NCBI GenBank assembly: GCA_034505795.1
Contig: JAPDQM010000004.1
Span: 348 to 64,347, forward strand
Direction: 5' to 3'
Source of the DNA: Candidatus Zhuqueibacterota bacterium
GTDB lineage: Bacteria > Zhuqueibacterota > Zhuqueibacteria > Thermofontimicrobiales > Thermofontimicrobiaceae
DNA: 64,000 nucleotides
The notes below the pieces were generated by a model, which had not been told where the DNA came from, did not search any database, and was given only the letters and a program-made list of their open reading frames with translations. Shown here piece by piece: positions 30,462 to 50,500 of the stretch (its first letter is position 1; each line of letters opens with the position of its first letter). A program made the position numbers and the translations under genes.

Positions 30462-32591
30462 CTATCGAATGATCACAAACTTCCGAAATGTGCTGTCGCC
30501 TTTTTTGTACAATAGTTGATTCGTTTCGGGATCGTAGTAATCTTCGGTAACTTCAAAATGGGCGATGTAAACACCGCTGACCACCACCTGTCGGGAAGAG
30601 GTCACCGAGTTCCAGGTCTCGTCGCCGCTACCGTTGGTGTGTTCGATGGTCTTAATCAGATCGCCGCGCTCGGTAAAAATCCGAATTCGACAGCGAGCAG
30701 GAATATCAAGAAAAGTAATTTTATCCGGCTCGCCCAGATATTGCAGACTTCTGGCGCGGATACTAAACGGATTGGGGACGACCCGAATATCTTTCAACGC
30801 GACTCCAGCTTTCCGGCGCAAATAAGCAGGCTCGGTGGTTCGGGTGTAGAAGCGACCGCTATGCAGAACGCCCGTGGGATTTGCCTCTCCGGTGGTGTTA
30901 TTGCTGCCGTCGTTCACTGCCACCAGATAGTAGTAATAGGAAAAGCCACGAGCGGCCTGCGTATCATTGAATTGGGTGGTTCCGGGTGGCACCGATCCAA
31001 TTTTCTGATAGACAGTATCCGGACGACCAATGGCGCGATAGATTTCATACCCCGCAAAATCGGGTTGACCCTCGGACTCGCTGGGCGACCAACTGAGACT
31101 GATCCGATCACCACCAGATTCCACATTGAAGACTGCGGGCGGCAACGGCGCCTGCGGTATCTTATAATCCAGGTCGAAATTCCGCTTGGCACGGCCAAAC
31201 GTCAACAAGATGGAATCTTTTCCGGTGTAGAACCAGGTGTTTTTATAAACGTTCTTGTCGGTGGTGGTACTGCCATCGGGCAAGGTGTAAGGTGAGTTTT
31301 GCAGCAGCCAGTTACGGCCAATCAACTCGCACATGGGCCGACTTAAGCCGCTCACGCCCTCGGCTTCCACGATCCGCACGCTTTCACCGGGCTCCAGATC
31401 AAAGGGACCGTAGCAAAGCCAGACATTGGTTCCGCCACCATCATTATGGATGGTCACCGGATCGGGATTGGATGCCATGTAGACTTCATCCATGCGATTG
31501 GTGCCGCCCAGGCCTTTATATGGTTTCCCGCTGAGCATTTCATATAATTCGATCATGCGGGGTTCATCGGTTTTCTGGAGATTGCCCAAGCTGGGATAGG
31601 TATCGCCAGCATGCCAGCCCAGCACTGCCGGCTGATTGGGATCATCGCTCTTATCGGTAGCGCTCTTGTCCACATGCAAAATAGCAGTACCGGCAAACTG
31701 CGGCCCGGTTAACCGGCCGGGTGCGGTCAACATCGGTGCACCAATATTGTCATAACTGTTCATCGCCGACTGCCCTGCCCAACTGAAGCCACATCGAATC
31801 CATTCGACAATCGGATTGGCTTCGGTAATTTTCTCCCCCACGTGTTGGGCGTAGTCTTCCCCGCGCTTGGTCACCCAGGTATGCTTGCCCCAAACCTGCC
31901 CGTCGCCAATCCTCTCGCCACCTTCACGACAGACGCTATAGCGCTGCCCCCAGCCGATGCGAACCCCTTTCAACGCTCGATTAAGCTCGATTTCAGGATC
32001 ATAGTCGGTATTGCCGGTATTGGTAAACGTGTATTCACAGATGAAATAATTGTCGTGATACTGTTGACTGAAGAAAAGAATTCGCCGGGTCATAGTCAGA
32101 CCGATCTTGGTATTCACCACCATCATAATTTCGCGATCGGCAATCAGGGAGGGATCCACCTCATCCACGTCACCGGCGTAAGGTGCAGTCACATTGTTGC
32201 CATCCACCAGCACCACGGGCGGGGAAAATTTAGCGATTTGCTTGAGCTGCATCGGAAACAGCGAAACATCGACCGAACCCAGGGTAATCGTCAACCCAAA
32301 CACCTCCCAGGACTGGCCTTCGGTATCGATGAAATCTTTGGTGGCGATCCAGGCTCGTTTGATAACGGCGTTATCCTGTTTGAGGTAGTCCGCCGGCCAG
32401 ATCAATCCTTCGTAGTAGCTGTTATTCCAGGCGCGCTCACTGCCATACGCATTGAAGTGAGTTTGTAATGAACCGATGCGGACATAGCGCCGCTCGGTCC
32501 CAGCAACTTGCGCCGATGCACTGGATATAGCTATCGCTAGGATACCGACGACCAGCAGAGCAACTGTCAATTTATGCATATTTTTTTTCAT
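30462..32591 (-). CDS. Secreted partner protein of the upstream TBDT (709 aa): unassigned N-terminal region, FN3-like module, divergent T9SS-like C-terminal domain
   Basis: Signal peptide MKKNMHKLTVALLVVGILAIAISSASAQ. Family motifs YFICEYTFTNTGNTDYDPEIEL, HVDKSATDKSDDPNQP, GPFDLEPGESVRIVEAEGVSGL. FN3-like PPAVFNVESGGDRISLSWSPS..FAGYEIYRA..FSYYYYLVAV. C-terminus IRVVPNPFSIRA..ITFLDIPARCRIRIFTERGDLIKTIEHTNGSGDETWN..SGVYIAHF..KFVIIR. Confidence 0.85.
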   Translation of the reverse strand: MKKNMHKLTVALLVVGILAIAISSASAQVAGTERRYVRIGSLQTHFNAYGSERAWNNSYYEGLIWPADYLKQDNAVIKRAWIATKDFIDTEGQSWEVFGLTITLGSVDVSLFPMQLKQIAKFSPPVVLVDGNNVTAPYAGDVDEVDPSLIADREIMMVVNTKIGLTMTRRILFFSQQYHDNYFICEYTFTNTGNTDYDPEIELNRALKGVRIGWGQRYSVCREGGERIGDGQVWGKHTWVTKRGEDYAQHVGEKITEANPIVEWIRCGFSWAGQSAMNSYDNIGAPMLTAPGRLTGPQFAGTAILHVDKSATDKSDDPNQPAVLGWHAGDTYPSLGNLQKTDEPRMIELYEMLSGKPYKGLGGTNRMDEVYMASNPDPVTIHNDGGGTNVWLCYGPFDLEPGESVRIVEAEGVSGLSRPMCELIGRNWLLQNSPYTLPDGSTTTDKNVYKNTWFYTGKDSILLTFGRAKRNFDLDYKIPQAPLPPAVFNVESGGDRISLSWSPSESEGQPDFAGYEIYRAIGRPDTVYQKIGSVPPGTTQFNDTQAARGFSYYYYLVAVNDGSNNTTGEANPTGVLHSGRFYTRTTEPAYLRRKAGVALKDIRVVPNPFSIRARSLQYLGEPDKITFLDIPARCRIRIFTERGDLIKTIEHTNGSGDETWNSVTSSRQVVVSGVYIAHFEVTEDYYDPETNQLLYKKGDSTFRKFVIIR

Positions 32592-32715: not shown

Positions 32716-35700
32716 TTAGAAACTGATTTTCAAACCGAATTTAATATCTCGTGGATTTAAAAAGGTGAAATAGGTTAAATTCGGCATATCGATATAGGCT
32801 TTGGTATCCAGAATTCGCTTCAGATCCTCTTTGGTCTTGGTGGGATCGCTGGGGTCGTATGCTTCATATTTGACGCCCGGCTTGCGATAATCCCCGATGC
32901 GATCATGACCATGTTCCGAACCCGATTCCCATGAAAAATGCAACGATTCCATGTAATCCAGATAATCATAGTTATTGGCAAAACCGGCATAATTCAGGAA
33001 TTTCAAGTTGAAGACATTGGTGATGTCCAGATAGGCTTGCAGTTCGTAACGGGCCAATTTGAACGATTTGGTCAACCGCATGTCAAAATTGTAATTATCC
33101 CGCCAGCGCACGTTATCGACAACACCTGGAATATTGTGGGGATTGTAAGTTGCATAAGCGCCGGCACGCCAGCTTGCCAATAGATTGAGATACCAGTTGC
33201 CCAGCACATGCTGTCCCAGCCAGACCGGTCCAAAATCTGGTGGAGTATGGATGTCGAAATTGAATCGAGCATAGGGTTGCGGCCGGGGCTTTTCCTGATA
33301 AGGATTCTCCCGGATGTAGTTACGCTGCTTATTGGGATCTTCGTAATATCGCAGCAATCCAAAATAGCCCGACGTGCCTACGTCGTAGGTATAGTTAATG
33401 AACCCCGTCAGCCAGCGGCCCGTAGTTTTGGTCAGGGTCAGTTCAAAGCCGCGAATGTCTTCGTAGTTGTTGTTGGCGGCTTTGCTGTACTGCACCGAGG
33501 CATTGATATTTTCGTAATAGACCCAGCCGGGTTGGTTGGTAATGTCCTTGTAATAAGCCGCCAGATTCAACAAAAAGAGATCGAACAGGTTCTGAGCATA
33601 GCCCAACTCATAGGCTACCGTTTTCTCAAAAACCATGTTCGGATTGCCAATCGTGGTCACCAGACCATTGTATTCCCGCTGCAACCGGAAACGATAAGTT
33701 GACGAGGGTTCCTGGGTAAAATGGCCGTAGTTAAAATAAAGTTTGGAATTAATAGTGATGGGATGCGAAATGCCCAATCGCGGACTCAGATGCCAGGTGG
33801 GTTTCGCATCTTCGGTCGGAATGCTGACTTCGATGAGCTTGCCAAATCCCTCGCGAAAATATTTGTCATAGGCCGCCATCTGGTAGACCACACCGTTCGG
33901 ATCGGAATAATCCAATCGCAAACCCACGTTGGCAATGAAGCCTTCAAATTCCAGCTTGTCTTGCACATAGGCACCGACTCGATAGGGGAAGCGATGATAG
34001 ACCTGCTGCCGATTCCACGTCGTCATGCCAGGATTTTCGGTGTAAGATTTGATGTTGTAGTCATCATAAACAATCTCCACTCCCGCTTTCACCTGATTGA
34101 CATTATTGAGTTGGCTGGTGAAATTCGCCTGCAATTTGGTGGTAGCGATAACGCTTTTATCCCGCCCCAAATTCATCCAGCCACCCAGAATCATGCCATC
34201 AATGCCGGTGACACCATAGCCCCAATAGCCCCACGGTGCTTCGTCCGTAAAAATACCGGGAACGGGTTCATATTTCTTCGTGGTATCCCGCAGCGCCATC
34301 TGGTAGGTCTTGTAGCGGTTGATGTTGTGCTGCAAATTGATTTCATAAAACGTTTTGGCGCTCAACATGTGCGTCCATTTAAAACCTAACATCGTGCGAT
34401 AGATGTTGCTGGGGCTGTAATAACCGGGCATATAAAGAATGGCATCGCCGCTGCTGCTACTGATCAGGTCGGCTACCTCGCTGTTGTAGCGCAATACCCG
34501 GCCGGTGGGCGTGGTCGTCCAATCATAAGGCGACACAGAGAACACTTCGCTGTAAAGGCCGGTTACCAGCAGCTTAATCATCGGATTGATATCGGAGGTT
34601 AATTTTAGCTGCGTAGAATTGTCCAGATAGTTGTCTCGTGAAAGCGGGTAGATGAACATCTCCCGTTCCTGGAAATGGGACAACGTAAATCGCAAATCCC
34701 CCAGCGCCGGGCCAATCACCGGAATTGGGCCGCCGAAAATGCCATCGACCACATAGTCGGGTTTATTGATGTCTCCCCGACGTCGATGCTGCCACTCCCA
34801 CAGCTTCTTCGCTCCTTCCGGCGTCAGATCATTCTTAGGGTCATTATCCCGGATGGTAGCATCGGAAACCGCGATCCAGCCTTCAAAGATCGGATATTGT
34901 CGCTGCGTGTACGCATCCCAGGCACCGTTGGTGGTACCGGTCCAACAAACCGCCGGGTCCATGTACGGCCGGGTGAAATAGGTGTAGGGATCATAAATCG
35001 AAGGCCCAAAATTTTTCTTAGCGGGTGGCCGATATTGAATCGTCAGACCGCCATTATAGTGCCGGCGATCGCCTTCCCTGGTCACCACATTGACCACGCC
35101 CGACCGAATATTGCCATATTCGGCATTAAAGCCAGCAGTTTGAATTTTCATCTCCTGGATAGAATTCAAACTTAGCGCCGTAAAGGGGACATTGGAGCGC
35201 TCGTCATTCAGCGACAATCCGTCCACCATAAATGCCGTTTGTCGGGCGCCACCGCCACGAATGATAACCCCCTCGCTCCCCTGTTCAATTCCCGCCTGCA
35301 GGACCAGGACCTCATTCACCTGTTTCACAGGTAAGGTTTCGACTTTTTTAAAATCGATATTGATTTCACTGGCCGCCACATCTCTGGTTACCACGGGACG
35401 CTCGGCAACAACCACCACTTCGCTCATTTCCAATGCTTCTGGTTTCATTTTAAAACTTATGGTTGTTGTCAAATCAATTTTCACAATTACATTTTGCGTG
35501 GATACCGATGCATAACCCATCATCGTGGCCTTAAGCGTATACACACCTGGCGGCACGTTCAGTATCACATAATCACCTTTCAAATCCGTGGTGGCGCCAA
35601 CGCTGGTGCCTTCGACAAAAACATTTACCCCGGGCAGCGGTTGCCCGCTCTCCGCATCGCTAATATGACCAGCGATTTTACCAGTAATACCGGCGAAGGC

Positions 35701-35769
35701 CATGGGCACCAGAATCAATAGCGACAGGCTAATGAAAATGGATATCTTTTTCACGACATTCTTCTCCAT
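32716..35769 (-). CDS. TonB-dependent transporter with CarboxypepD_reg-like domain (long subfamily, ~1017 aa)
   Basis: Track ORF 32716..35814 trimmed to MEKNVVKKISIFISLSLLILVPMAFA (ATG 35767-35769; the start is less certain because there is no clear SD). ITGKIAGHISD..GVYTLKATMMGY. Plug motifs IIRGGGARQTAFMVDG..VNVVTREG. Conserved post-plug insert ..PYMDPAVCWTGTTNGAWDAYTQRQYP.. C-terminus ..KFGLKISF. Confidence 0.88.
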   Translation of the reverse strand: MEKNVVKKISIFISLSLLILVPMAFAGITGKIAGHISDAESGQPLPGVNVFVEGTSVGATTDLKGDYVILNVPPGVYTLKATMMGYASVSTQNVIVKIDLTTTISFKMKPEALEMSEVVVVAERPVVTRDVAASEINIDFKKVETLPVKQVNEVLVLQAGIEQGSEGVIIRGGGARQTAFMVDGLSLNDERSNVPFTALSLNSIQEMKIQTAGFNAEYGNIRSGVVNVVTREGDRRHYNGGLTIQYRPPAKKNFGPSIYDPYTYFTRPYMDPAVCWTGTTNGAWDAYTQRQYPIFEGWIAVSDATIRDNDPKNDLTPEGAKKLWEWQHRRRGDINKPDYVVDGIFGGPIPVIGPALGDLRFTLSHFQEREMFIYPLSRDNYLDNSTQLKLTSDINPMIKLLVTGLYSEVFSVSPYDWTTTPTGRVLRYNSEVADLISSSSGDAILYMPGYYSPSNIYRTMLGFKWTHMLSAKTFYEINLQHNINRYKTYQMALRDTTKKYEPVPGIFTDEAPWGYWGYGVTGIDGMILGGWMNLGRDKSVIATTKLQANFTSQLNNVNQVKAGVEIVYDDYNIKSYTENPGMTTWNRQQVYHRFPYRVGAYVQDKLEFEGFIANVGLRLDYSDPNGVVYQMAAYDKYFREGFGKLIEVSIPTEDAKPTWHLSPRLGISHPITINSKLYFNYGHFTQEPSSTYRFRLQREYNGLVTTIGNPNMVFEKTVAYELGYAQNLFDLFLLNLAAYYKDITNQPGWVYYENINASVQYSKAANNNYEDIRGFELTLTKTTGRWLTGFINYTYDVGTSGYFGLLRYYEDPNKQRNYIRENPYQEKPRPQPYARFNFDIHTPPDFGPVWLGQHVLGNWYLNLLASWRAGAYATYNPHNIPGVVDNVRWRDNYNFDMRLTKSFKLARYELQAYLDITNVFNLKFLNYAGFANNYDYLDYMESLHFSWESGSEHGHDRIGDYRKPGVKYEAYDPSDPTKTKEDLKRILDTKAYIDMPNLTYFTFLNPRDIKFGLKISF

Positions 35770-35983
35770 TTGTTTAAAATCATAATGGCCTGATTTACAC
35801 CAGACTCGAATCAATAATGTCTCTCCTCATTTTTTGGTCGCTTTATGGTAAGTAGGCTAATAAGATTGAGTCGCTAAATAGGTCACACAGTTGCACGATT
35901 CATCAGCCGGAACAAGCGTCAGCTTAAACGTGTCCAAACCGACAACCACGCGCAAAACGCAAATAGCACTTGGCACAGCGCTT

Positions 35984-37265: not shown

Positions 37266-38291
37266 TTAAAGTGATAGTCGGAATGAAACCCGTTGCACAT
37301 TATCGAACACCCCAAACGGCGTATAAGCATAATCCAGTGCGATCATCCGATCGCCCAAAAATTTGGTTTGCACCCCGAAGCCCGCGGCAAAATCCTGTTC
37401 ATCCCGATTGAGCATGTAGCCAAACCGCAACGCCAGCATATTCATTAGTGTATATTCAGCACCGAAATTCAATTGCTCCGAATAATCTCGCGGGTGGATC
37501 GCATCGACGGAAATCAACAGGGAATGCATATTGGTCTTTTCCATGAGCACATCAAAAATATTCATGGAAATACCCATTTTGAAGGTCAATGGCAACTGGA
37601 ATCCTTCGGATTCGAACTTCACTTCCTGGGAGAAATTGCGCACGGTCATTCCGAACACCAGGCTTTTAAAACCGGTGCGGTAAATAGTTCCAAAATCGAT
37701 CGCGAACACGCTCAAGTCATTGCTCACTTCTTTCGTGCCCTCGGCAACCGTTTCGCCGATAGGAATGATGCTGTTGCCCAGTTTCTGGTTGACGTACCGA
37801 ATATGGCCGCCCACCGAGAACCGATCGGTCAGCGATTTGGCATAGCCCAGGCCGATGGCAAAAGCCGAAGGCTTGAATTCACCAGTATCGATATAGCCTT
37901 TGTCGCTGGTCGGATCCACTCGCGTGCCAATGAATTCTCCATAGTCAACCGAGATCAGACTCAGACCAAAGGTACCATATTTCCCATAGGTCGGGTTGAA
38001 AGCGATGCTGGCCGAGTAGTGGGTCATGTCCGCAATCCACTTGTTCTGATTCAGCGATAGGTCCATGAAGTTGTTCATCAGGGAGAGGTTAGCGGGATTG
38101 TGGAATAGCGACAAAGATCTTCCTTCAACGGTGGTAAAAGCTTCGCCCATAGCCGCAGCGCGTGCTTCAGTGGCTACGCTTAAAAATTGTAAACCTGTCT
38201 GCGCTAATTTTTTATTCGCAGAGTAGCTATTGCAAATAACCAGCCCGATGGTCAGGATGGCTAAGCCGAGTATGAAGATCGCTTTTTTCAT
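37266..38291 (-). CDS. PorV/PorQ-like outer-membrane beta-barrel protein
   Basis: Signal peptide, then KLAQTGLQFLSVATEARAAAMGEAFTTVEGRSLSLFHNPANLS. Beta-barrel pattern with terminal ..SFRLSL. GAGGAG upstream. Starts 39 nt after the partner-gene stop. Confidence 0.75.
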   Translation of the reverse strand: MKKAIFILGLAILTIGLVICNSYSANKKLAQTGLQFLSVATEARAAAMGEAFTTVEGRSLSLFHNPANLSLMNNFMDLSLNQNKWIADMTHYSASIAFNPTYGKYGTFGLSLISVDYGEFIGTRVDPTSDKGYIDTGEFKPSAFAIGLGYAKSLTDRFSVGGHIRYVNQKLGNSIIPIGETVAEGTKEVSNDLSVFAIDFGTIYRTGFKSLVFGMTVRNFSQEVKFESEGFQLPLTFKMGISMNIFDVLMEKTNMHSLLISVDAIHPRDYSEQLNFGAEYTLMNMLALRFGYMLNRDEQDFAAGFGVQTKFLGDRMIALDYAYTPFGVFDNVQRVSFRLSL

Positions 38292-38330: not shown

Positions 38331-40445
38331 TTAACGAATGATGATGAATTTCCGAATGGCATTATCGCCTTTTTTGAATAACAGTTCACCCGTATTCGCA
38401 TCGTAATAATCCTGCGTCACTTCAAAATAGGCGATATAGACACCGCTAACGACGACCTGCCGCGACGAGGTGATGGAGTTCCACTCGGCATCACCACTGC
38501 CATCCGTGTGTTCAATGGTATAGATGAGATCACCGCGTTCGGTAAATATTTTAATCGTGCAGTATGGCGGAATATCCAGGAACATGATACGATCCTGCCC
38601 GCTAATACCATATTGCAGGTCACGCGCTTTGATATTGTATGGATTCGGTACGACCCGAATGGCCTCTAAACTTTGCCCCGACTGTCGTTTCAGTTTAGCC
38701 GGATTGCTGGTGCGGGTATAGAACATGCTGCTCTGCAACGAGCCGCCCGGATTGGCTGGCGAATTGTTGTGCAGGCCATCATCAAAAGTCACAACATAGT
38801 AATAATAGTCGAAGCCACGCACGGCTGTTTTGTCTTCGAATCGGTTGACGACTTGCGGATGAGCAGTGCCGGCGCCACAGGCAAAGATTTCGTCATAGGT
38901 GGTGTCGGGCTTGTGGATCGCCCGGAAGAGTCGATAGCCAGCAAATCCCGGCCACGATTCAGCCGAATTAGACCAGGTGAGCACGATCCGATCGCCACCG
39001 GAATTGACGCGAAATTCATCAGGCGGTGGCGGTGGCAGCGGAATATTGTACTTCAATTTGTAATTCTCGATGGTACGCTGAAACATCTTTTTCAACGAAT
39101 CTCTGCCAGTTAGCACCCAGGCATTTTTATATTCGTCTTTGTTATTCGTCGTGCTGCCATTGGGCAGGCGGAAAGGCGGCTGCCCCTTCAGCCAACGAGC
39201 GCCAATAGTGTAACAGGAGTCCCGACAAAGGCCATCGATGCCTTCAGCAATCACGATGTGAATACTGTCGCCGGGAGCTAATGTGTAGGGGCCAAAACCC
39301 AAACAATGCGAAAAACCGCCGGGCGTACCACCCCAAACATCGGCAAAGCCATCACCCACGGCATCCGCATGCATCACGGGTGGATGGCCGGCGGTCATTG
39401 CCGCATACTCCTCAGCCATTTTAGCCGCATTAAATTGATCATTGGACGAGGTGATCGGCACATCGGAACCCAAAAATTGCGTTGTAGTCGGCTGATTGGG
39501 ATCATTCGACTTATCCTGGGCGGATTTATCAGCATGCAACACCAAATTGCCCGTAAATTGAGCGCCACCCAGGTGCCCATCGCCACCAGCCGAGCCATTG
39601 GGTCCACCGGTGCAATCAAACGTCGCTTTAGAATGTTTACCGGTCCAGGAAAATTCACTCAGATACGGCTGGCCAGTCTGTTGGTCATAGACCAGCATGG
39701 TATCGTTCATGGTGCAATGCCCCCAGGCCGCAGATTGTGGCAGATAATAGTAGCCATAGGGACCGGTTTCCCGCGCAGCGGTGTAGCGGTATTGAAAGAA
39801 GAACACCACATCCTGCAGGGTCTGGACATTCACCGTGCCCTTGTTATCAATAATGCCGGTGTTTTTAAAAACGTAATCATAAATGAAGTAGTTATTATGA
39901 AACTGTTGGCTGAAGGCATAGATCGTTCGATATTCCGTGATGCCAATACCGGTATTGACAACATTGTAAAGAATGCGATCAGTGACCGCATTGGGATCGA
40001 CTTCATCCACGGCATCCATGTAGTCCAAAAAACCAGCCGGCGTATCATCCACATAAACCCGGGGCCGTTCGAAACGACCGATCAATTTGAATTGCTGGGG
40101 CATGAATTCATTCTTTTCATCCCACACGCGGGGGCCGATATGGACGACTTTATAATCGAACGTTTTGCCAGCCAGGGGATCATTATAATTTTTGGCGCCA
40201 ATCCACAGCGCTTTGGCGGCCTTGCAATCCTGCCAGTTGAACTGCGCTGGCCAGCGCAGGCCATCCTGCTGGTCAGAAACCAAATGCCGGCGACCCACTT
40301 CGATTTCGCAGCCCATGCTGGAGTACCACTCGTGCAGCATGCCCACGGCCAGCCACTTGGTTTCATCACCCAAAACCATGGTAACACTGCTCAAACATAA
40401 TATCACAATGAGCGAGAGTCTGGTGAGAGAACGGTTTGCTTTCAT
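38331..40445 (-). CDS. Secreted partner protein of the upstream TBDT (704 aa): unassigned N-terminal region, FN3-like module, divergent T9SS-like C-terminal domain
   Basis: N-terminal signal-like segment MKANRSLTRLSLIVILCLSSVTMVLG. Family motifs WLAVGMLHEWYS, YFIYDYVFKNTGIIDNKG, HADKSAQDKSNDPNQP, GPYTLAPGDSIHIVIAEGIDGL. FN3-like PPPPDEFRVNSGGDRIVLTWSNS..FAGYRLFRA..FDYYYYVVTF. C-terminus IRVVPNPYNIKA..IMFLDIPPYCTIKIFTERGDLIYTIEHTDGSGDAEWN..SGVYIAYF..KFIIIR. Confidence 0.85.
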   Translation of the reverse strand: MKANRSLTRLSLIVILCLSSVTMVLGDETKWLAVGMLHEWYSSMGCEIEVGRRHLVSDQQDGLRWPAQFNWQDCKAAKALWIGAKNYNDPLAGKTFDYKVVHIGPRVWDEKNEFMPQQFKLIGRFERPRVYVDDTPAGFLDYMDAVDEVDPNAVTDRILYNVVNTGIGITEYRTIYAFSQQFHNNYFIYDYVFKNTGIIDNKGTVNVQTLQDVVFFFQYRYTAARETGPYGYYYLPQSAAWGHCTMNDTMLVYDQQTGQPYLSEFSWTGKHSKATFDCTGGPNGSAGGDGHLGGAQFTGNLVLHADKSAQDKSNDPNQPTTTQFLGSDVPITSSNDQFNAAKMAEEYAAMTAGHPPVMHADAVGDGFADVWGGTPGGFSHCLGFGPYTLAPGDSIHIVIAEGIDGLCRDSCYTIGARWLKGQPPFRLPNGSTTNNKDEYKNAWVLTGRDSLKKMFQRTIENYKLKYNIPLPPPPPDEFRVNSGGDRIVLTWSNSAESWPGFAGYRLFRAIHKPDTTYDEIFACGAGTAHPQVVNRFEDKTAVRGFDYYYYVVTFDDGLHNNSPANPGGSLQSSMFYTRTSNPAKLKRQSGQSLEAIRVVPNPYNIKARDLQYGISGQDRIMFLDIPPYCTIKIFTERGDLIYTIEHTDGSGDAEWNSITSSRQVVVSGVYIAYFEVTQDYYDANTGELLFKKGDNAIRKFIIIR

Positions 40446-40531: not shown

Positions 40532-43500
40532 CTAAAATTTATAATTGATCGTGATTCCCCAAAAGATGGTCCGCGGATTCAAAAATGTGAAATAGGTCTG
40601 GTTCGGCATATCGATATAGGCTTTGTCTTCAAGGATCTTATCGATACGCTTTTGTTCCACCTGACGCCAGTTATTATCCACGAACTCCATATACTTCTGG
40701 GTATTGGCATCATAATAGATGACTCTGGGATTGGGATTGGCAAATTGGGTATAATCGGCTACCCACTCCATTGGCACGTATTCGACGCCTGTTTTCCGGT
40801 AATCGCCCAATTGGTCATTGCCGGGAATATTTTCATATTTCAATTTATCAGCGATGTTTCGCGGCAGATGCAGCGATTTCAGGTAATAATTCCTATCAAA
40901 AGTATCGAAATAGGACAGCCGCGAGAAGTGCTTAAAGTTGAACACATTGAAAATGTCCATAAAGAATTTTACATCCAGGTCTTTGAAGACAAACGTCTTG
41001 GATAATTTTAGATCGATATTGTAATCGGATTTCCATTGGACGTTGTACTCGATGCCAGGGACATTGTTGGGATTCCAGGTATCCCATAAACCGGCAGTCC
41101 AGTTACCCAACAGATTCAAGTGCCAATCGCTCAGGATTTGTTGCCCCATAAATTCCGGGCCGATTTTGCTGGGAGTGTGAATATCGAAATAGGCTTTGAA
41201 GCGAGGCCGCGGTCGTGGCTTCGACTGCTTGGGATTTTTCAAGTCGAAATCCCGCTGCGCCGCAGGATCGTCATGAACTTCGCGCTTGCCAAAGTATCCT
41301 GAAGTTCCCACGCGATACTCATAATTCAAATTGCCAGTGAACCAGCGCCCTGTACTCTTGGTCAGGTCGAATTCAAAGCCACGAATGTCCTCGTAGCTGT
41401 TGTTGGTCAATTTATAATAGTCGAAATTTTTGATATCGCTGATAATCCGAATCCAATATTCCTGATCGGAAATATCTTTATAGTAAGCGGACAGATGCAG
41501 CAAATAATCCGACATAATGGCCTGGTCATAACCCAACTCGTAGGAGACCGTTTTCGCCAATGGGATCGTGGGATCTCCGAAGTATTCCATCTTTTCGGTC
41601 AGGTTGCGCTGATTGCGATAATAGCGTTCCGAGGTCGGCATCTGGCGATAGTGACCATAGTTGAAATAGAGTTTCGAGTTGTTGGTGATGGGATGCGAAA
41701 TTGCCAGACGCGGGCTGACCGTAAATCGCCCTTTGACGCTTTTGGTTTTGTACTGACTTTCATCCTCGGGACGGAATTTAAAGAAATTCCGATCGTACAT
41801 ATCGACATCGAACCACTTGCCATTGGGATTGCTATATTCCATAATCAATCCGAGCGAGGAGATGAAGCCACCCACCTCGATTTTATCCTGAATGTATAGC
41901 GAGCCTCGAAATGGATTTTGCTTAATATAGGTCCAGGTATTGCCTTCGGGCAGATATTTATTTACCTGACCGAATGCCATATCGAAGCGGTCGTGGATGA
42001 ATTCGATACCGCTTTTTAGCTGATTCCATGAATCGATCTGACTCACCAGGTCAGCGCGTGCGGTATAGGTCGAGATCTCGCTGTAGTCGCGAGACACACT
42101 GATCGGACCACCCATGATGAAGTTGCCATCGCCGGTTCCGAACACGGGTCCTTCCTCGAATCCAAATGGCCGTTCGTCGATTAAATAGCCCGGGAAAATC
42201 TCGTAGGTTTTGCTATAATCACGATAGCGCCCCGGCTCGGTGCGATAGATTTTTCCGCTACGCTTCAATTGAACTTCATAAAAAGTAGTGGGATTGATGA
42301 GATGGGTGAATTTGGCGGAAATGGTATTGTAAAATTGAGCCGTAGGCGAAAAATAGATGTTGGTATAAATTCGGGAGGGCGTGGTAAAGCTGCCCGTGAT
42401 CATCGTGGACGCCACATCCTCCGGTGTCTCCATATAGCTGGTGCCACCAGAGAAAGACGATGAGACGCCATATATCTCGCCATACAAGCCCATGACCGTT
42501 AGTTTCATTGCCTCGCTAATATCTGACGTAAGCTTAAGCATACCGCTCCGATTGGTCAGCGCCTTTCGCGACAGCTCAATCAGATACATATCCTGTTCTT
42601 GTCGTGCTGAGGCGAAAAAGCGGAGATTGCCCAGATATTTGCTAATGAACGGTACCGGGCCACCAAAGCCACCGTCCACATTATAATCCGGCTGGTCGAT
42701 ATCGCCTTGCTTCCGATGCTCCCATAAAAATAATCGCTGAGCCGCCTCGGGGGTAAGATCATTGTTGGGATCGTCATCCTGCAACGTTCGCTGCGACACT
42801 GTATTCCAACCATCGAATTTGGGATACTGGCGTTGCGTGTACAGGTCCCAATTCCCGTTCTGAGTACCGGTCCAGCAAACCGCGGGATCGAGATATGGCC
42901 GAAGCCAATAGGAATTTGGATCGTAGGGTGAAATGCCAAAATGCTTGGGTGCGGGCGGCCGATATTTCATGGTCATAGTCGCCGTGTAGCGATCGCTCAA
43001 CCCCTCTTTCGTAACCACATTCACCACGCCCGAACGTACATTCTGATACTCGGCGTTGAAGCCGCCGGTTTGCACCGAAACCTCTTGCACGGCACTCAGC
43101 GGAACAGAAGTAACGGGCTTGTTGTCTCGTTCGTCCCTCAAAACCACTCCATCGACCATGAACATCGCCTGGTCGGCACCGCTACCGCGAATACCCAGGC
43201 CTGATGTAATACCGGCCTGCAAACCCAGGGCTTCATTGACAGTGGTAACCGGCAACGTAGCGATTTGATCGGTGCTGATATTTTTTTTGCTGGCGGCCAC
43301 ATCTTTTTCCACTACGGGACGCTCAGCGACCACTGTAACCTCTTCACCGGCTAACACCTCGGCTTTCATTTTAAAATCGACGGTGGTGGTTTGGTCAATA
43401 TACACGCGGACATTGGTCATTGTCACTGCGGAGTAGCCCATCATGGTCGCCTTTAGCGTATATGTTCCAGGCGGCACATTCAAGATCACATAATTGCCAG

Positions 43501-43675
43501 AGATGCCAGCAGCCGCGCCCATCATCGTTCCTTCAATAACGATATTCACTCCGGGCAAGGGTTGACTGGTCTCTTCATCGATAACCACACCGGCAATTTT
43601 TCCGGTCACCCCTGCCAGGGCCGCGGTCGCAGCAATGACGATGATTGCAATGAGGAAAAGAAACAATCTCTTCAT
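40532..43675 (-). CDS. TonB-dependent transporter with CarboxypepD_reg-like domain (long subfamily, 1047 aa)
   Basis: Signal peptide MKRLFLFLIAIIVIAATAALA with GGAAGGGAG upstream. VTGKIAGVVID..GTYTLKATMMGY. Plug motifs GIRGSGADQAMFMVDG..VNVVTKEG. Conserved post-plug insert. C-terminus ..WGITINYKF. Confidence 0.9.
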   Translation of the reverse strand: MKRLFLFLIAIIVIAATAALAGVTGKIAGVVIDEETSQPLPGVNIVIEGTMMGAAAGISGNYVILNVPPGTYTLKATMMGYSAVTMTNVRVYIDQTTTVDFKMKAEVLAGEEVTVVAERPVVEKDVAASKKNISTDQIATLPVTTVNEALGLQAGITSGLGIRGSGADQAMFMVDGVVLRDERDNKPVTSVPLSAVQEVSVQTGGFNAEYQNVRSGVVNVVTKEGLSDRYTATMTMKYRPPAPKHFGISPYDPNSYWLRPYLDPAVCWTGTQNGNWDLYTQRQYPKFDGWNTVSQRTLQDDDPNNDLTPEAAQRLFLWEHRKQGDIDQPDYNVDGGFGGPVPFISKYLGNLRFFASARQEQDMYLIELSRKALTNRSGMLKLTSDISEAMKLTVMGLYGEIYGVSSSFSGGTSYMETPEDVASTMITGSFTTPSRIYTNIYFSPTAQFYNTISAKFTHLINPTTFYEVQLKRSGKIYRTEPGRYRDYSKTYEIFPGYLIDERPFGFEEGPVFGTGDGNFIMGGPISVSRDYSEISTYTARADLVSQIDSWNQLKSGIEFIHDRFDMAFGQVNKYLPEGNTWTYIKQNPFRGSLYIQDKIEVGGFISSLGLIMEYSNPNGKWFDVDMYDRNFFKFRPEDESQYKTKSVKGRFTVSPRLAISHPITNNSKLYFNYGHYRQMPTSERYYRNQRNLTEKMEYFGDPTIPLAKTVSYELGYDQAIMSDYLLHLSAYYKDISDQEYWIRIISDIKNFDYYKLTNNSYEDIRGFEFDLTKSTGRWFTGNLNYEYRVGTSGYFGKREVHDDPAAQRDFDLKNPKQSKPRPRPRFKAYFDIHTPSKIGPEFMGQQILSDWHLNLLGNWTAGLWDTWNPNNVPGIEYNVQWKSDYNIDLKLSKTFVFKDLDVKFFMDIFNVFNFKHFSRLSYFDTFDRNYYLKSLHLPRNIADKLKYENIPGNDQLGDYRKTGVEYVPMEWVADYTQFANPNPRVIYYDANTQKYMEFVDNNWRQVEQKRIDKILEDKAYIDMPNQTYFTFLNPRTIFWGITINYKF

Positions 43676-43881: not shown

Positions 43882-43910
43882 AATATAAACCTTTTTTAAC
43901 TATTTGTCAA
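43882..43910 (-). promoter_or_regulatory. Sigma-70-like promoter upstream of the 40532..43675 TBDT cassette
   Basis: The minus strand reads TTGACA (43910-43905), a 17-nt spacer, then TATATT (43887-43882). About 205 nt upstream of the ATG at 43675. Confidence 0.4.
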
Positions 43911-45312: not shown

Positions 45313-47388
45313 TTAGCGAATGATTAAGAATTTTACAACCTGACTCTGACCAGTGACATTGTCCGTCACCACAGCAATATAGACGCCACTAACGACGATC
45401 TGCTGATACTCGGTGGTGCAGGACCAATAGGCATCGCCACTGCCATCGGTATGCTCGATGGTTTTGATCAATTCCCCGGTTTCGGTATAAATTTTGATCG
45501 TACATTGCCCGGGAATATTGTAAAATGCCAATTTATCACTTTCCCCTGGGAAGAGCAGGCGATTCGGATCGGCCGAGATGTTGTAGGGATTCGGCACTAC
45601 CCGAATCTGGCTCAACGATTCGCCAGCCGGACGTTTCAGATTGGTCGGATCATAAGTTTGGGTGTAGTACCGGCTACTGCGCAAAATGTCTGCAGGGATA
45701 TTAAGCGTTGGATCAGCAGGAATTTCGTTGCCGGTGGAAACAATATAATAAAAATAGGAAACACCCCGCTCCAAAACGGTATCATTGAAACTCCGCTCAT
45801 CGGGTCCGGCGCGATGGATCAATTGGTAGGTGCTGTCGTACTGGCCTTTGGCCCGATAAATTTCAAAACCCGTTCTTTCTGGGTCATTTTCTTCATAAAC
45901 TTCCCAATTCAGCATGATGCGATCGCCACCGCCATTGACTCGAAAAACACTGGGCGGCTTTGGTGGTTGTTGAATGGCATATCCGGATTGATAATTGGCA
46001 ATCGCACGTCGGAACGTTTGAAAGAGCGAGTCCCGGCCACTCAGCACCCATTCGTTTTTCGTTTTGGCGCTAATCTGGCCGGTCTTGAATTGCTTGCCAA
46101 TCTCAATGCACTTTTCGCGGCTTAAACCCGCGGCTGCCTCCGCCCAAACGATGCGAACGCTCTCGCCGGGACGCAAGGTGTAAGGTCCATAGCCATTGCA
46201 AGCAGAAAATCCACCGGGAGTCCCCAATGCTGGATCGCCGGTGGGCTCGGCGAAGTTGCCCGACGGTTCCACTTTCCAGGCATGCCGCGGCGACATGTGG
46301 CCTTTGGACATCCAGCCGTATTCGGATTCCATGCGCGCCACATTGTAGGGATCGTTCTGCGAGGTATTGGGCGCATCGGAAGATTCGTATGTCGTAGTGG
46401 ATGGCTGGCCCGGATCATCGGTCGGGTCCGTGGCCGAGCGGTCGGCATGCAGCGTGACTACACCAATGAACTGTGCTGAGCCAAGCCGACCAACCGTATC
46501 CGCCGAACCAATGTATCCAGCCGATCCCGCCGGATTCCAGATCGGCGCGCCTAAATTGTCATATTGCGTAAATGGCGGATATTTGCCATGCCAACCAAAT
46601 TGCGCCCGGAATTGTTCATTGGGAGGATCGGGCATCACACCGTCGCCTCGCGCATCCAGCATCAAATTAATGCCCCAGCCTGTCGCATTGCCAATAAGAT
46701 AACGCGTTTCACGGCATACCGCCCAACGAAATTGGAAAAAGAAATAAACATCCTCCAGCGTCTGATTCGGCAATTCAATCTCCGGATCATCATCGACATT
46801 ACCCGTGTTGGTAAAGGTGTACTCACAGATGATATAATTATCATGATAGGGATGGCTGAATTGCATGATCTTGCGGGTGGTGGTAATGCCGATCTGGTTA
46901 TTGGTGATATTCAAAATCATGCGATCGGCTTTCAGCGTTGGATCGACACCATCATTATCCACCCGCTTTTCGTAGGTCTCGATTAAGTCAACTGTCGTTT
47001 TGGGCGGTTCAAAGCGGCTATACATCTCGAATTTCACCGGGAAAAATTCATTGGCGCCGGTCACTCGTGGACCGACATGCACCACTTTATACGGGTAAAA
47101 GACGCCTTTTTCATCGGTGAAATTCTTGCAGCCGATCCAGAAGGCCTTGGCTGCTTGCATGTCCTGATAACGGTAGATACCCTCCCATTGCATCCCGCAC
47201 TGTTGCACTTTCAAATTCCCATGCTCGATTTCGGAACCGATTTCCGAATACCAGTTATGCAGCGAGCCAACAGCCAGCCATTTGACTGCAAATTGAGCGT
47301 TGGCCAGAAACGGGTTCAGCGCGAAAATTATAACGCCGATAAGCACGCCCCATCGCATCCGTTTCTTTTCAAAAATTTGTTTATTCAT
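45313..47388 (-). CDS. Secreted partner protein of the upstream TBDT (691 aa): unassigned N-terminal region, FN3-like module, divergent T9SS-like C-terminal domain
   Basis: Signal peptide ..RWGVLIGVIIFALNPFLANAQ. Family motifs WLAVGSLHNWYS, YIICEYTFTNTGNVDDDPEIEL, HADRSATDPTDDPGQP, GPYTLRPGESVRIVWAEAAAGL. FN3-like PPSVFRVNGGGDRIMLNWEV..GFEIYRA..VSYFYYIVST. C-terminus IRVVPNPYNISA..LAFYNIPGQCTIKIYTETGELIKTIEHTDGSGDAYW..SGVYIAVV..KFLIIR. Confidence 0.85.
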   Translation of the reverse strand: MNKQIFEKKRMRWGVLIGVIIFALNPFLANAQFAVKWLAVGSLHNWYSEIGSEIEHGNLKVQQCGMQWEGIYRYQDMQAAKAFWIGCKNFTDEKGVFYPYKVVHVGPRVTGANEFFPVKFEMYSRFEPPKTTVDLIETYEKRVDNDGVDPTLKADRMILNITNNQIGITTTRKIMQFSHPYHDNYIICEYTFTNTGNVDDDPEIELPNQTLEDVYFFFQFRWAVCRETRYLIGNATGWGINLMLDARGDGVMPDPPNEQFRAQFGWHGKYPPFTQYDNLGAPIWNPAGSAGYIGSADTVGRLGSAQFIGVVTLHADRSATDPTDDPGQPSTTTYESSDAPNTSQNDPYNVARMESEYGWMSKGHMSPRHAWKVEPSGNFAEPTGDPALGTPGGFSACNGYGPYTLRPGESVRIVWAEAAAGLSREKCIEIGKQFKTGQISAKTKNEWVLSGRDSLFQTFRRAIANYQSGYAIQQPPKPPSVFRVNGGGDRIMLNWEVYEENDPERTGFEIYRAKGQYDSTYQLIHRAGPDERSFNDTVLERGVSYFYYIVSTGNEIPADPTLNIPADILRSSRYYTQTYDPTNLKRPAGESLSQIRVVPNPYNISADPNRLLFPGESDKLAFYNIPGQCTIKIYTETGELIKTIEHTDGSGDAYWSCTTEYQQIVVSGVYIAVVTDNVTGQSQVVKFLIIR

Positions 47389-47560: not shown

Positions 47561-50500
47561 TTATTTGATGTCGAACGACATTCGAATTCCCCAGAAAATA
47601 TCCCGCGGATCAAGGAACGTGAAGAACTGCTGATTCGGCATGTCGATATAGGCTTTCGTCTCCAAAATTCGTTTCTTGCGCGCTTCATCAGGATCGTTGG
47701 GATCGTAGGGTTCATACGGTACAGTCCGATAATCTCCCGGTCGGTCATTGCCAGGGATATTGCCATAACCCAATTCGTCGCCGATCTTGGCCGGCAGATG
47801 TAACGACTTCATATAGGCGATATAATCGGGAGAATCCACGAAGCCGTATTGCGTCATATACTTGAAATTGAACACGTTCGAAATATCCACAAAGAACTCG
47901 ACATTGGCCGTGCCAATGCGGAAATTTCGGCTGAATTTAATATTAACATTATAGTAATCTTTCCATTGCACATTATTTTCAATGCCAGGAATCGAGCCGC
48001 CGCCGGTCCAGGTAAAATGATAACCCGACCGCCAGGTAGCTAACACATTCAGCCGCCAATCCGCCAATGGATAAATATTCAGCAATTTTGGGCCAAATTG
48101 TTGTGGCATAAAGAAATCAAAATCGGCCCGGGCATACGGCCTTGGCACCGGTTTTTCCTGATAACTGCGCCAGGTTTCTGATTCAATACGTCGCATCACA
48201 GCGGGATTATTGGAGTAAGTGCTAAAGCCAAAATTGCCAGCCGTCGTGACTTCATAGGTGTAGTTGACAAATCCCTGGATCCAGTTGCCGCGATTTTTAC
48301 GCAACGTCACCTCAAAACCGCGCGTGTCCTGATAGTTATAGGGCTTGCTAACCGAATAATTCACTGTTCCATCATCTCGTTGATAGGTCACCGCACGCGG
48401 CTGCAACGAAGAATCCCGGTAGTAACCGGCAACCCGCACCAAAAACTGATTGAATAGATTGTGCTCATACCCCAACTCATAGGCTACGGTTCTGGGCAGT
48501 GGATTGTTGGGGCTGGCGATCCGCATCACATATTTGGTAGCGGTTTCGCGACGCAGCAGATAGAGATTTTCCGGTGTTGGCAACTGTCGAAAATGTCCAT
48601 AATTAAAGTAAAGTTTGCTATTGATAGTGATGGGGAAGGCAATACCCAGCCGGGGGCTCAAGTTAAAGATGCGCTTGGTGGGTTCTTTATCCAGCAGGGT
48701 ATCAATGCCCGTAGAATATTTGGCCGAAAATGCCTTGTTCCAGGGATCATCGTACGCGTACCACTCGCCGCCGGCATGGGAATAATCAAGCCGTAAGCCC
48801 ACATTAGCAATCATCCCCTCGAATTCCAATTTATCCTGTAGATAGATCGCGGCGCGAACCGGATAGGTGTGCCATTTTGATTGAGAGCGGCCGCTGGGCA
48901 GAAAAATGTCCACTGACGCATAATTCACATTATTATCCGTGTAGATAAATTCAACGCCACCCTTCAAATTGTTGAAGCGATCAAGCTGACTGGTCATATC
49001 GAAGCGGGTGGTATAGACGGTCACGCGGCTGCTATCGCGCGAGTTGCTCATTCCCACTCCCATGCGCAGGCCCACAATGCCGGTGCTGGGTGCGGGCTGA
49101 TAGCCAAAAGGCGCTTCATCGATATAATAGTTGTCGCCAAATTTGTAGACCCGGGAGGTATCTCGTGGAGTGCCGGGATTGGTATTGTAACTGGATTGAA
49201 AACGTTGCAGGGTGACTTCATAAAAAGTTTTCGGACTGAGCACATGGGTAAATTTGGCGCCAAAGTTGGTCCGAGTGACGGTAGACGGGCACCAATAATC
49301 TGTGCCGTACATTCTGCCATCGATGTATTTTGGGCCATTGCTCAGCGCACTGGCAATGCTCCAGGAATCACTAAAAATCCCAGGCTCACCGGAGTTATTA
49401 TCATTGGTACCACTCTGCCTTCCAATGAGGCCGTCGATCATCAGTTTCATGCCTTCGCCAATGTCCGAGGTAATTTTCAGTTGTCCATTGTAATCGCGAT
49501 AGGCATCGCGCGACAGCGGCACGATGTACATATCTCGCGCATCGCGATACGAAGCAAAGAACCGAAGATTGCCCAACGGTTCGCTGATAAATGGCACCGG
49601 CCCACCAAAACTCATGTCAACATTATAATCGGGCTTGGAGATGTCCAATTTGCGCCGATGCTCCCACAGGAACACCTGTTGCGCGGCTGCTGGAGTCAAA
49701 TCGTTATCCGGATTATCATCTTTCAAGGTTTTTGCTGAAACCGCATTCCACCCTTCAAATTCAACATATTGCTTTTGCGTGTACTCATCCCAGGCTCCAT
49801 TTTTGGTGCCGGTCCAACAAACCGCATTATCCACATACGGCCGAATCCAGTAGGAATCCCAGGACGAGGGAGAATGGCCAAAATGCTTCTTTGCCGGCGG
49901 GCTGTAACGCGTCAGCAAACCGAAGTGATACTGGTCTTTTTTGCCTTCTTTGGTGACTACGTGAATCAGACCCGCGCGCATGTTGCCGTATTCAGCATTA
50001 AAGCCACCGGTTTGAATTTGGATTTCATCGATGGAGGTGTAGCTTATCGCCGTATAGGGCTGATTGTTTCGCTCATCTCGAAGCGTAAAGCCGTTCACCA
50101 TAAACGCAGTCTGATCGGCGCCACCGCCACGAATGGTCAATCCCTGCACGCCAGCTTCCAGAGCTACCACACTGGCGACACTGACTACCGGCAGCGATTG
50201 GATCTCTTTGGCATTCAGGTTGGCCTGGCTCGCTGAAACATCTTTTTGCACCACTGGCCGTTCAGCCACAACCTGCACTTCCTCGCCCATGATGGCCTGC
50301 AATTTCATTTTGAAATCTACAGTCGTAGTAAGATCAATGCTGACACGCACATTGGCTGCAGTTAAATTTGCATAGCCCATCATGGTGGCTTTCAACGTAT
50401 AGGTGCCAGGTGGAACGTTTAAAATGACATAATATCCTTTGAGATCAGCCGCGGCCCCCATCATCGTGCCTTCGATAACGATGTTAGCGCCTGGCAGGGG

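Follow-up and report, generated by a model that had tools for sequence, protein, structure and literature searches.

Known partners and anchors of outer membrane transporters

Accessory proteins of TonB-dependent transporters and type IX secretion system (T9SS) cargo with a cognate outer membrane barrel are both known kinds of surface protein. Among the former, SusD and RagB are encoded immediately downstream of a TonB-dependent transporter of approximately 1000 amino acids (aa) that carries a carboxypeptidase-regulatory-like N-terminal domain; they occur in many diverged copies per genome, and their cassettes contain extra surface lipoproteins. SusD itself is a lipoprotein with an all-alpha, TPR-like fold. 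Several non-SusD lid families for TonB-dependent transporters have been described in Bacteroides, namely, unrelated surface proteins encoded beside the transporter and inferred to bind its outer face; they are lipoproteins, serve shorter non-SusC transporters of small substrates, and are almost confined to the Bacteroidota (bioRxiv 10.1101/2023.03.17.533168). Among the T9SS cargo, PorZ and PorU of Porphyromonas gingivalis each retain the C-terminal domain, with PorQ and PorV as the respective anchors (PMC5562754, PMC10947112), and type B cargo is anchored by PorP-like barrels (PMC9143113), as in the SprB-SprF and PG1035-PorP pairs. Furthermore, BamG, a FadL/PorV-like barrel, holds a surface protein against the BamA barrel (PMC12578637). 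Here we report on a protein family that is encoded five times beside TonB-dependent transporters in a stretch of 64,000 nucleotides of Candidatus Zhuqueibacterota bacterium (assembly GCA_034505795.1, contig JAPDQM010000004.1, positions 348 to 64,347, forward strand), which is referred to below as the window and which supplies all coordinates given.

The members of this family, referred to as partners, consist of a signal peptide, an N-terminal domain (N-domain) that is new to the domain libraries, a fibronectin type III (FN3)-like module, and a C-terminal domain that resembles T9SS sorting domains. The reading that we favor, and to which we give about an even chance, is that the partner captures substrate for its cognate transporter, is exported by the T9SS, is neither a lipoprotein nor related to SusD, and is kept at the surface by a C-terminal domain that is retained and docks on the adjacent PorV/Q-type barrel. 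Such a system would be like the SusCD pairs and the alternative Bacteroides lids in function and like PorZ-PorQ and SprB-SprF in anchoring; it is a member of none of these families. The partners of the window are:

38331..40445, minus strand: partner p1 (704 aa), with signal peptide, N-domain, FN3-like module, linker and T9SS-type C-terminal domain
30462..32591, minus strand: partner paralog p2 (709 aa), without a PorV/Q gene of its own
45313..47388, minus strand: partner paralog p3 (691 aa)
9911..11908, minus strand: distant partner paralog p4 (665 aa), second subfamily, with an acidic DxDGDG-type loop after the NVG motif
1..2778, minus strand: distant partner paralog p5, third subfamily, cut at the window edge

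The features of SusD/RagB named above, from gene position to the extra lipoproteins, all recur in these cassettes, which can also follow a hybrid sensor-regulator pair. However, the all-alpha fold of SusD stands against a predicted beta-supersandwich combined with an FN3-like module and a sorting domain, and its lipoprotein nature against a partner that has no lipobox and is presumably exported by the T9SS; the transporter, in turn, lies outside the SusC/RagA family by the NCBIfam cutoff. SusD identity was rejected on the evidence of fold, signal peptide and hidden Markov models (HMMs), and the Pfam models SusD_RagB and SusD-like had no match in the five paralogs (E ≤ 1) or in 38 homologs (E ≤ 0.01). 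The non-SusD lids differ from the partner family in that the latter is T9SS-type cargo, occurs in phyla of the Fibrobacteres-Chlorobi-Bacteroidetes (FCB) group other than the Bacteroidota, and has a dedicated PorV/Q-type barrel alongside. PorZ-PorQ and PorU-PorV share with the partner the combination of a surface protein bearing a C-terminal sorting-type domain and a 14-strand barrel of the PorV/PorQ family, whereas PorZ has two beta-propellers and a role in cargo attachment, not in nutrient uptake; unlike PorZ-PorQ, the partner-barrel pair is tandem-encoded, multiplied per genome and linked to a transporter. SprB-SprF and PG1035-PorP are T9SS cargo anchored at the surface by a cognate barrel, as is proposed for the partner, but they combine a type B domain with a PorP/SprF barrel, in contrast to the type-A-like domain and PorV/PorQ (FadL-like) barrel found here.

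The N-domain is a homologous unit in all five partners

The partners p2 and p3 share 45 to 46% identity with p1, as compared to 25% for p4 and 19% for p5. The initial annotation had listed all five proteins as members of one family, and they were indeed found to be homologous, but p5 is not complete; its relatives at full length have approximately 939 aa, with some 300 extra residues between the FN3-like module and the C-terminal domain. At E ≤ 1e-5, p1 has 1294 homologs, named "fibronectin" or "hypothetical", none of which carries a Pfam domain, and the homologs of the other two subfamilies are likewise named only "fibronectin" or "hypothetical protein". The sequence blocks by which the family had been recognized by eye largely stood: Y(F/I)I(Y/C)(D/E)Y.F.NTG, H(A/V)D(K/R)SA.D..(N/D)DP.QP and GP(Y/F).L.PG(D/E)S..IV.AE are present as written in all three close paralogs, and the blocks FIIYEYVIKNVG, FKFYITNTG and SGPFDLAPGQTV of the distant members were confirmed by translation of p4 and p5. 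The block WLAVG(M/S)LH.WYS is exact in two of the close paralogs and degenerate (YVRIGSLQTHFN) in p2. The N-domain of p1 was delimited as follows:

39045..40367, minus strand: uncharacterized N-domain of p1, residues 27 to 467, mostly beta, supersandwich-like, with a C-terminal helical hairpin

Homology of the N-domains was assessed by compiling separate homolog alignments for each subfamily (A5, A4 and A6), which were trimmed to the N-terminal region and submitted to profile-profile comparison. The three N-domain-only comparisons gave 96.2% (E 2.4e-9), 95.9% (E 5e-9) and 99.4% (E 1e-21) over 275 to 300 columns, which indicates that one homologous domain of approximately 390 to 440 residues is present in all five proteins and that the similarity goes beyond motifs shared by chance. 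When the N-domains of p1 and p5 were compared pairwise by BLASTP, the match was not significant (E 0.098), so that profiles are needed to show their homology.

That this region is a conserved domain without a recognizable family was confirmed by the database searches. Pfam and NCBIfam gave no match on the N-terminal region of the five paralogs, even at E ≤ 1; Pfam gave none on the N-domains of the 38 homologs, which were scanned singly; and the N-domain matched no PDB sequence, either by phmmer with a single sequence or by a profile search. The earlier remark that no catalytic motif can be named was also borne out, and no catalytic family turned up with Pfam, NCBIfam or profile searches of the PDB. 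When 1.84 billion representative sequences were searched with a profile of the five N-domains, clusters at 50% identity numbered 801 with E ≤ 1e-3 and 227 with E ≤ 1e-30. The N-domain was also found following BNR/sortilin propellers, preceding beta-helix/PMP repeats, and together with FG-GAP repeats; these other architectures (P0361-P0364, P0376, P0384 and P0497) are proteins of 1000 to 1600 aa. Among eight such proteins that were scanned, seven end in a bona fide Por_Secre_tail domain (PF18962) and none has a recognizable catalytic domain fused to the N-domain. The N-domain is a modular unit, present in further T9SS cargo architectures.

An alignment of homologs in search of invariant polar residues, as had been recommended, revealed a strong set in the main subfamily and none that spans all three subfamilies. 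In the 123-sequence alignment of the main subfamily, the conserved residues comprise D156, N195, R220, W241, H304, D306, D315, Q318, E401, K440, D449 and S450. Neither of the two other subfamilies has the H-A-D-K-S-A...DDP.QP block or the K440/D449/S450 region, and the only polar or aromatic positions that are invariant across the five paralogs are D147, S179, N195, W267 and Y347, besides glycines and prolines. The second subfamily has many invariant aspartates, including those of the DxDGDG-type loop that follows its NVG motif; this loop and the aspartates suggest Ca2+ sites.

Predicted structure of the partner

The AlphaFold2 (AF2) model of full-length p1, computed from a 39-sequence alignment, is confident, with a mean pLDDT of 87.8 and a pTM of 0.85, and the model of the N-domain only has a pLDDT of 83 and a pTM of 0.87. 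The full-length model is composed of the mostly beta N-domain (residues ~29-405), helices (408-463), a seven-strand module (477-555), a linker, and a beta-sandwich (597-702), with few helices, namely, those at residues 340-363 and 408-463. The first ~34 residues of the N-domain, which contain the WLAVG block, were less confident when the domain was modeled alone and formed two confident strands in the full-length model, suggesting that they pack against the C-terminal modules.

Foldseek was run against the PDB with both models and returned the same kind of neighbor from each, as had been proposed as a check on the family. No confident match to a glycoside hydrolase (GH), peptidase or lectin fold that would explain the family was obtained. 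The neighbors were phosphorylases (cellobiose, cellodextrin, chitobiose and laminaribiose phosphorylases of GH94; GH65), hydrolases (GH116 beta-glucosidases, GH15 dextran dextrinase, GH63 glucosidase I, GH36) and, beyond the glycoside enzymes, the periplasmic P1 domain of YidC and a galactose mutarotase. These neighbor families share an N-terminal beta-supersandwich of the galactose mutarotase type, which in the glycoside hydrolases and phosphorylases lies beside the catalytic (alpha/alpha)6 barrel and is not part of it. The matches of the N-domain were made at a Foldseek probability of 1.0, with E-values of 1e-5 to 2.5e-7 and identities of 7 to 13%, and the TM-scores were 0.25 to 0.36 when normalized to the query and at most 0.39 when normalized to the target (YidC-P1), as compared to a same-fold criterion of >0.5. 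The structures matched are the non-catalytic N-terminal beta-sandwiches of several glycoside hydrolase and phosphorylase families, and the model-based matches would give the N-domain a fold class, but neither a family nor a function. The sandwiches of GH94, GH116, GH65, GH15, GH63 and GH36, together with YidC-P1 and galactose mutarotase, are the only structural neighbors found for the N-domain, and no sequence-detectable relation links them to it. A catalytic (alpha/alpha)6 barrel is absent from the p1 model, and the identification of the partner as a glycoside hydrolase of GH94, GH116 or GH65 was rejected, given that only the accessory sandwich matches and that the catalytic barrel is missing.

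Export signal, middle module and C-terminal sorting domain

Three further parts of p1 bear on its export and on its position at the cell surface:

40368..40445, minus strand: signal peptide of p1, residues 1-26, signal peptidase I (SPase I) type, read from the sequence
38766..39032, minus strand: FN3-like module, residues ~472-560, with seven AF2 strands and Foldseek matches to FN3 tandems (Foldseek probability 1.0)
38334..38663, minus strand: C-terminal domain, residues ~595-704, variant type-A T9SS sorting domain

All five paralogs start with an n-h-c signal peptide, ending in VLG|D, ASA|Q, ANA|Q, VWS|A or LQA|Q (sites judged by eye), and inspection of the sequences showed that a lipobox cysteine at position +1 is absent from all of them. 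SPase I-type signal peptides without a lipobox indicate that the partners are secreted and are not lipoproteins. At least six other proteins encoded in the window have significant Por_Secre_tail domains, from which it follows that the organism uses the T9SS route.

The initial annotation had described an FN3-like module followed by a C-terminal beta-sandwich. Both modules are present, but it had been missed that the sandwich is a T9SS-type sorting domain. The FN3-like module is supported by a weak PDB profile match to an Fn3-like protein; Pfam fn3 (PF00041) was reported below threshold in p2 only (17.6 bits, cutoff 25, E 0.0047). The C-terminal domain was aligned with five Pfam-significant Por_Secre_tail domains of the same window, from which it differs by one family-specific insert. 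Common to both sets are the landmarks PNP(F/Y), an I-K-I-F strand, G..I.T, W, (A/V)SG(V/I)Y and a terminal K..(I/L)(I/V)(K/R), and these shared landmarks identify the C-terminal domain of the partner as a variant type-A T9SS sorting domain. PF18962 was not reported for this domain in the Pfam scan of the paralogs. Its best NCBIfam match, and the most consistent of its weak matches, is the C-terminus of PorZ, with 26 bits and as a local match only, and the Foldseek list for the p1 model includes PorZ (5m11).

Among the modules of the partners, conservation is highest in the C-terminal domain, with a mean pairwise identity of 67% as compared to 58% for the N-domain in one subfamily, and of 69% versus 62% in the other. 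The partners p1 and p2 are encoded in the same gene string, which has just one barrel gene; they are 71% identical in the C-terminal domain and 37% identical in the N-domain, whereas the corresponding values for p1 and p3, which have a barrel each, are 57% and 47%. Across the window and related loci, partners that share a barrel have 69 to 82% C-terminal identity, with N-domains of 36 to 66%, as compared to 56 to 67% C-terminal identity for pairs with separate barrels; these pairs are few and not mutually independent.

The transporter cassettes and their conservation

The window contains five transporter-partner cassettes, all on one strand and within approximately 50 kb (1-50614, minus). Each of the five partners has a TonB-dependent transporter of approximately 950 to 1050 aa, composed of a CarboxypepD_reg-like domain, plug and barrel, immediately upstream. 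The initial annotation had noted the partnership with the adjoining transporters, which is supported by gene context; the PorV/PorQ-family barrel that follows directly after three of the five partners had escaped it. Two of the cassettes continue with a TIG/propeller lipoprotein. The genes concerned are:

40532..43675, minus strand: cognate TonB-dependent transporter of p1 (1047 aa), with CarboxypepD_reg-like N-terminal domain, plug and divergent barrel (Pfam)
32716..35814, minus strand: TonB-dependent transporter of p2
47561..50614, minus strand: TonB-dependent transporter of p3
11935..14832, minus strand: TonB-dependent transporter of p4
2821..5676, minus strand: TonB-dependent transporter of p5
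37266..38291, minus strand: PorV/PorQ-family outer membrane barrel (341 aa) after p1, NF033709 at 201 bits
44241..45290, minus strand: PorV/PorQ-family barrel after p3, NF033709 at 193 bits
8825..9817, minus strand: PorV/PorQ-family barrel after p4, NF033709 at 216 bits
36028..37251, minus strand: TIG and propeller-like lipoprotein (407 aa), lipobox LLGC|EADN, with a Pfam TIG match
29139..30335, minus strand: second TIG/propeller lipoprotein, lipobox VSGC|QQEK, downstream of p2

The transporters are not members of SusC/RagA by the curated cutoff, and their family is poorly characterized. Model TIGR04056 gave 49 to 59 bits on the five proteins (50 bits on the transporter of p1) against a cutoff of 368, matching only the N-terminal ~140 to 180 residues. 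PF00593 recognizes the barrel in two of the five and misses those of 40532-43675, 32716-35814 and 47561-50614, and a PDB sequence search with the transporter matched only the N-terminal carboxypeptidase-regulatory-like domain, with no relative beyond it. As to the barrels that follow the partners, all exceed the NF033709 cutoff of 90 bits, and their scores with the equivalog models for PorQ (82-101 bits, cutoff 220) and PorV (75-89 bits, cutoff 250) are below the cutoffs, so that they form a separate branch and are orthologs of neither. The TIG lipoproteins have a propeller-like C-terminal part (weak Reg_prop and ScyE matches) and may be analogues of surface glycan-binding proteins. Acidic residues follow their lipobox cysteine, resembling the surface-export signal of Bacteroidota lipoproteins.

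The members of the cassette diverge in parallel. Among the close cassettes, identities are 48 to 50% for the transporter, 43 to 46% for the partner and 49% for the barrel; to the distant cassettes, the corresponding values are 31 to 37%, 24 to 31% and 35 to 38%. Such parallel divergence indicates that the cassette duplicates and evolves as a unit.

The gene order was found to be near-obligate beyond the window. HMMs built from the window proteins were used to survey 80 loci from species-representative genomes, out of at least 566 matching stretches. Of 70 loci, 67 have a TonB-dependent transporter gene directly upstream of the partner; a PorV/Q-family barrel is encoded within 1.3 kb downstream in 64 of 69, and a TIG lipoprotein within 2.6 kb downstream in 43 of 61. 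The genomes are labeled KSB1, Calditrichota/Caldithrix, Melioribacteraceae/Ignavibacteriales, Neomarinimicrobiota, WOR-3, Delongbacteria, Fidelibacterota and Stahlbacteria, and the upstream transporter linkage of the ~700-aa architecture spans at least six phylum-level lineages. One Melioribacteraceae genome has the same gene order, with a double cassette behind a hybrid sensor kinase and a response regulator. Partner and barrel are separated by 440 to 1130 bp in 41 of 64 related loci; in two loci that were inspected, L009 (8114-8695) and L051 (8080-9096), this gap holds a small lipoprotein-like open reading frame (ORF) of 193 or 338 aa with a lipobox-like ISQC or ISC, and no such ORF is found in the window. 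A metagenome-assembled genome (MAG) labeled "uncultured Cytophagia bacterium" (L003, CAZYNP010000002.1) encodes a 95% identical partner in the same cassette order. The MAG labels Cytophagia, Deferribacteres, Lentisphaeria and Bacteroidetes conflict with KSB1, Calditrichota and Marinimicrobia kin and are probably wrong. A description of the domain or the cassette was not found in the literature, including the genome papers of Caldithrix abyssi and Melioribacter roseus, although coverage was incomplete and absence is thus unproven.

Proposed mechanism and alternative explanations

According to the favored reading, the partner would be made with an ordinary Sec signal peptide and then be exported by the T9SS. 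Its C-terminal domain would be kept and would dock on the PorV/PorQ-family 14-strand barrel encoded immediately downstream, tethering the partner in the plane of the membrane next to the transporter, with the FN3-like module serving as a spacer. The working part would be the N-terminal beta-supersandwich of ~440 aa, which would capture a substrate outside the cell (an oligosaccharide or some other polymer fragment is the most likely candidate), possibly with the help of Ca2+ in the acidic loops, and which would hand it to the transporter or close over the extracellular face of the latter; the TIG/propeller lipoprotein would serve as an additional surface binding protein. All of these functional steps are proposed from sequence, predicted structure and gene order. 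Binding is favored over catalysis because of the structural neighbors, the types of protein to which the N-domain is fused, and the lack of a superfamily-wide conserved polar constellation, and tethering to the barrel is indirectly supported by the C-terminal domain being the most conserved module and by its divergence tracking the sharing of barrels. A broader claim, which we put forward more tentatively and regard as possible, is that the cassette is an undescribed, SusD-free uptake machine of non-Bacteroidota FCB phyla (KSB1/Zhuqueibacterota, Calditrichota, Ignavibacteria, Marinimicrobia, WOR-3 and others), in which the lid would not be a lipoprotein and the TIG/propeller lipoprotein would act as a further binder.

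Several points weigh against the favored reading. The interactions of the partner with the transporter and with the barrel are proposed from gene adjacency, and the structural similarity is weak, at TM-scores of 0.25 to 0.39 and 7 to 13% identity. Catalysis is compatible with the fold, since the supersandwich acts as an enzyme in galactose mutarotase and supplies loops to the active sites of GH94 and GH65, and the conserved polar set of the main subfamily could mark an active site instead of an interface or a site of binding. The C-terminal domain scores below the cutoffs of the curated models, with 16.8 bits for TIGR04183 (cutoff 23) and 18.5 bits for CHU_C (cutoff 27). Its retention is an assumption, as type-A C-terminal domains are normally cleaved by PorU (PMC5562754). 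The pairing with the barrel is not strictly one to one, as p2 and the loci L033, L034 and L043 have no barrel of their own, and the comparison of shared with separate barrels comprises two or three independent gene arrangements only. Lastly, at least one N-domain protein of a different architecture (locus L083) is encoded on a short 5-kb contig whose ~0.5 kb of upstream sequence includes no called transporter gene.

Some of these points bear directly on an enzymatic role. The N-domain may act at the surface as an enzyme of a new kind, for example a glycoside hydrolase, a polysaccharide lyase or a peptidase, that cuts a polymer for the adjoining transporter, the role that SusG and surface endo-enzymes play in the utilization loci of Bacteroidota. 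A position beside the transporter fits such an enzyme equally well, the polar set of the main subfamily, which includes H304, D306, D315, E401, K440, D449 and S450, is highly conserved, and the structural neighbors all come from carbohydrate-active enzymes, with the fold itself being catalytic in galactose mutarotase; moreover, the T9SS cargo of these phyla is often enzymatic (PMC3534657). We nevertheless consider this role unlikely, because the matches are to N-terminal sandwiches, which are not catalytic, and no (alpha/alpha)6 barrel is present in the partner, because the H-A-D-K-S-A block and K440/D449/S450 are absent from two subfamilies that share the same gene context, and because the profile searches of Pfam, NCBIfam and the PDB detect no catalytic family. 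The N-domain is, in addition, fused to binding-type modules only, and lids, unlike surface enzymes, typically pair with a transporter obligately and one to one. A different alternative leaves the service to the transporter intact but turns the partner into ordinary T9SS cargo, whose C-terminal domain is cleaved and which is attached to lipopolysaccharide or released, with the barrel acting as a shuttle or secretion helper. The C-terminal domain has all type-A motifs and PorU normally cleaves type-A domains (PMC5562754), PorV is a shuttle and not an anchor for most cargo (PMC5562754), and some partners have no barrel gene of their own. However, conservation that exceeds that of all other modules and divergence that follows barrel sharing would be unusual for a disposable signal, the best model match of the domain is the retained domain of PorZ, and a dedicated barrel paralog per cassette (64 of 69 loci) would be costly for a transient helper, so that this explanation also appears improbable.

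Two further explanations, which dispense with substrate capture, have very little to recommend them. The partner and the PorV/Q-type barrel might be biogenesis or stability factors for a large, divergent transporter, comparable to BamG and BamH. In support of this, the Bacteroidota BAM complex (beta-barrel assembly machinery) has a FadL/PorV-like barrel by which a surface protein is held against a second barrel (PMC12578637), and the transporters are very divergent, without a PDB relative past the N-terminal domain and with a barrel that Pfam misses in three of five. Yet a single genome has five diverged cassettes with a separate partner in each, a pattern that resembles diversification by substrate more than a general machinery for assembly, and the cassette can follow a sensor-regulator pair, as in nutrient-utilization loci; a biogenesis role is thus highly unlikely. 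Nor is it at all probable that the partner is an adhesin or a surface-layer component whose linkage to the transporter is incidental to operon organization. The N-domain does occur in very long, adhesin-looking proteins with beta-helix/PMP and FG-GAP repeats, one of which is the protein of locus L083 mentioned above, but the ~700-aa architecture has a transporter immediately upstream in 67 of 70 loci from at least six phylum-level lineages, and the members of the cassette diverge in parallel.

Regulatory signals and neighboring genes

Two near-perfect promoter matches suggest that each cassette is its own transcription unit, although this is weak evidence, given that a scan of the window for promoters and terminators gave total match counts equal to the shuffled expectation. 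The two matches are:

43882..43910, minus strand: sigma-70-like promoter match (11/12), ~205 nt upstream of the transporter gene 40532..43675, consensus match only
50926-50954, minus strand: sigma-70-type promoter match (12/12), ~310 nt upstream of the transporter gene 47561..50614, consensus match only

A search of the whole window for Rfam riboswitches, which upstream of a transporter could have pointed to its substrate, yielded no family that reached its gathering score. Long plus-strand ORFs lie inside minus-strand genes, for example, 39306..40400 (364 aa) opposite the partner gene p1. They were rejected as genes, being most likely shadow ORFs, since the minus-strand gene is well supported.

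Further genes lie between the cassettes, all on the minus strand:

6038-8722, minus strand: FG-GAP/BNR propeller with sorting domain
15149-18265, minus strand: GHL10-like hydrolase with Big_5 and sorting domain
18673-20622, minus strand: metallophosphoesterase with PQQ-type propeller
20677-23274, minus strand: Amidase_3 (MurNAc-L-Ala amidase) with Big_5 and sorting domain
24565-27279, minus strand: Golvesin_C protein with sorting domain

The annotated enzymes among them could hint at cell-wall or glycan substrates. Together, the cassettes and the interspersed T9SS cargo genes look like one very large nutrient-acquisition island. This island is flanked by genes for FeoB, a DtxR-type iron-dependent repressor fused to FeoA, and the RNA polymerase alpha subunit (51531-54255, plus, and 54904-55890, minus), and these housekeeping genes indicate that it is chromosomal and not an obvious mobile element.

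Significance for the biology of the carrier phyla

The phyla that carry the cassette, including Marinimicrobia/SAR406, Calditrichota, KSB1/Zhuqueibacterota and Ignavibacteria, are abundant in oceans, sediments and bioreactors, where they degrade organic matter; most are uncultured, and their polymer uptake has been inferred largely by analogy to SusCD of Bacteroidota. The family described here is invisible to current domain libraries, even though a 50-kb stretch of a genome can hold up to five copies, and specialists in TonB-dependent transport as well as in the T9SS would find the proposed architecture surprising. If the partner does capture substrates, it would be a marker for predicting substrate-specific uptake loci in these phyla, and the lid principle of TonB-dependent transport would have evolved anew, on another fold and with another means of anchoring. 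The numerous additional PorV/PorQ paralogs of FCB genomes would then have a function as cassette-specific anchors, a new domain family would be defined, and the T9SS would be linked directly to the assembly of nutrient importers.

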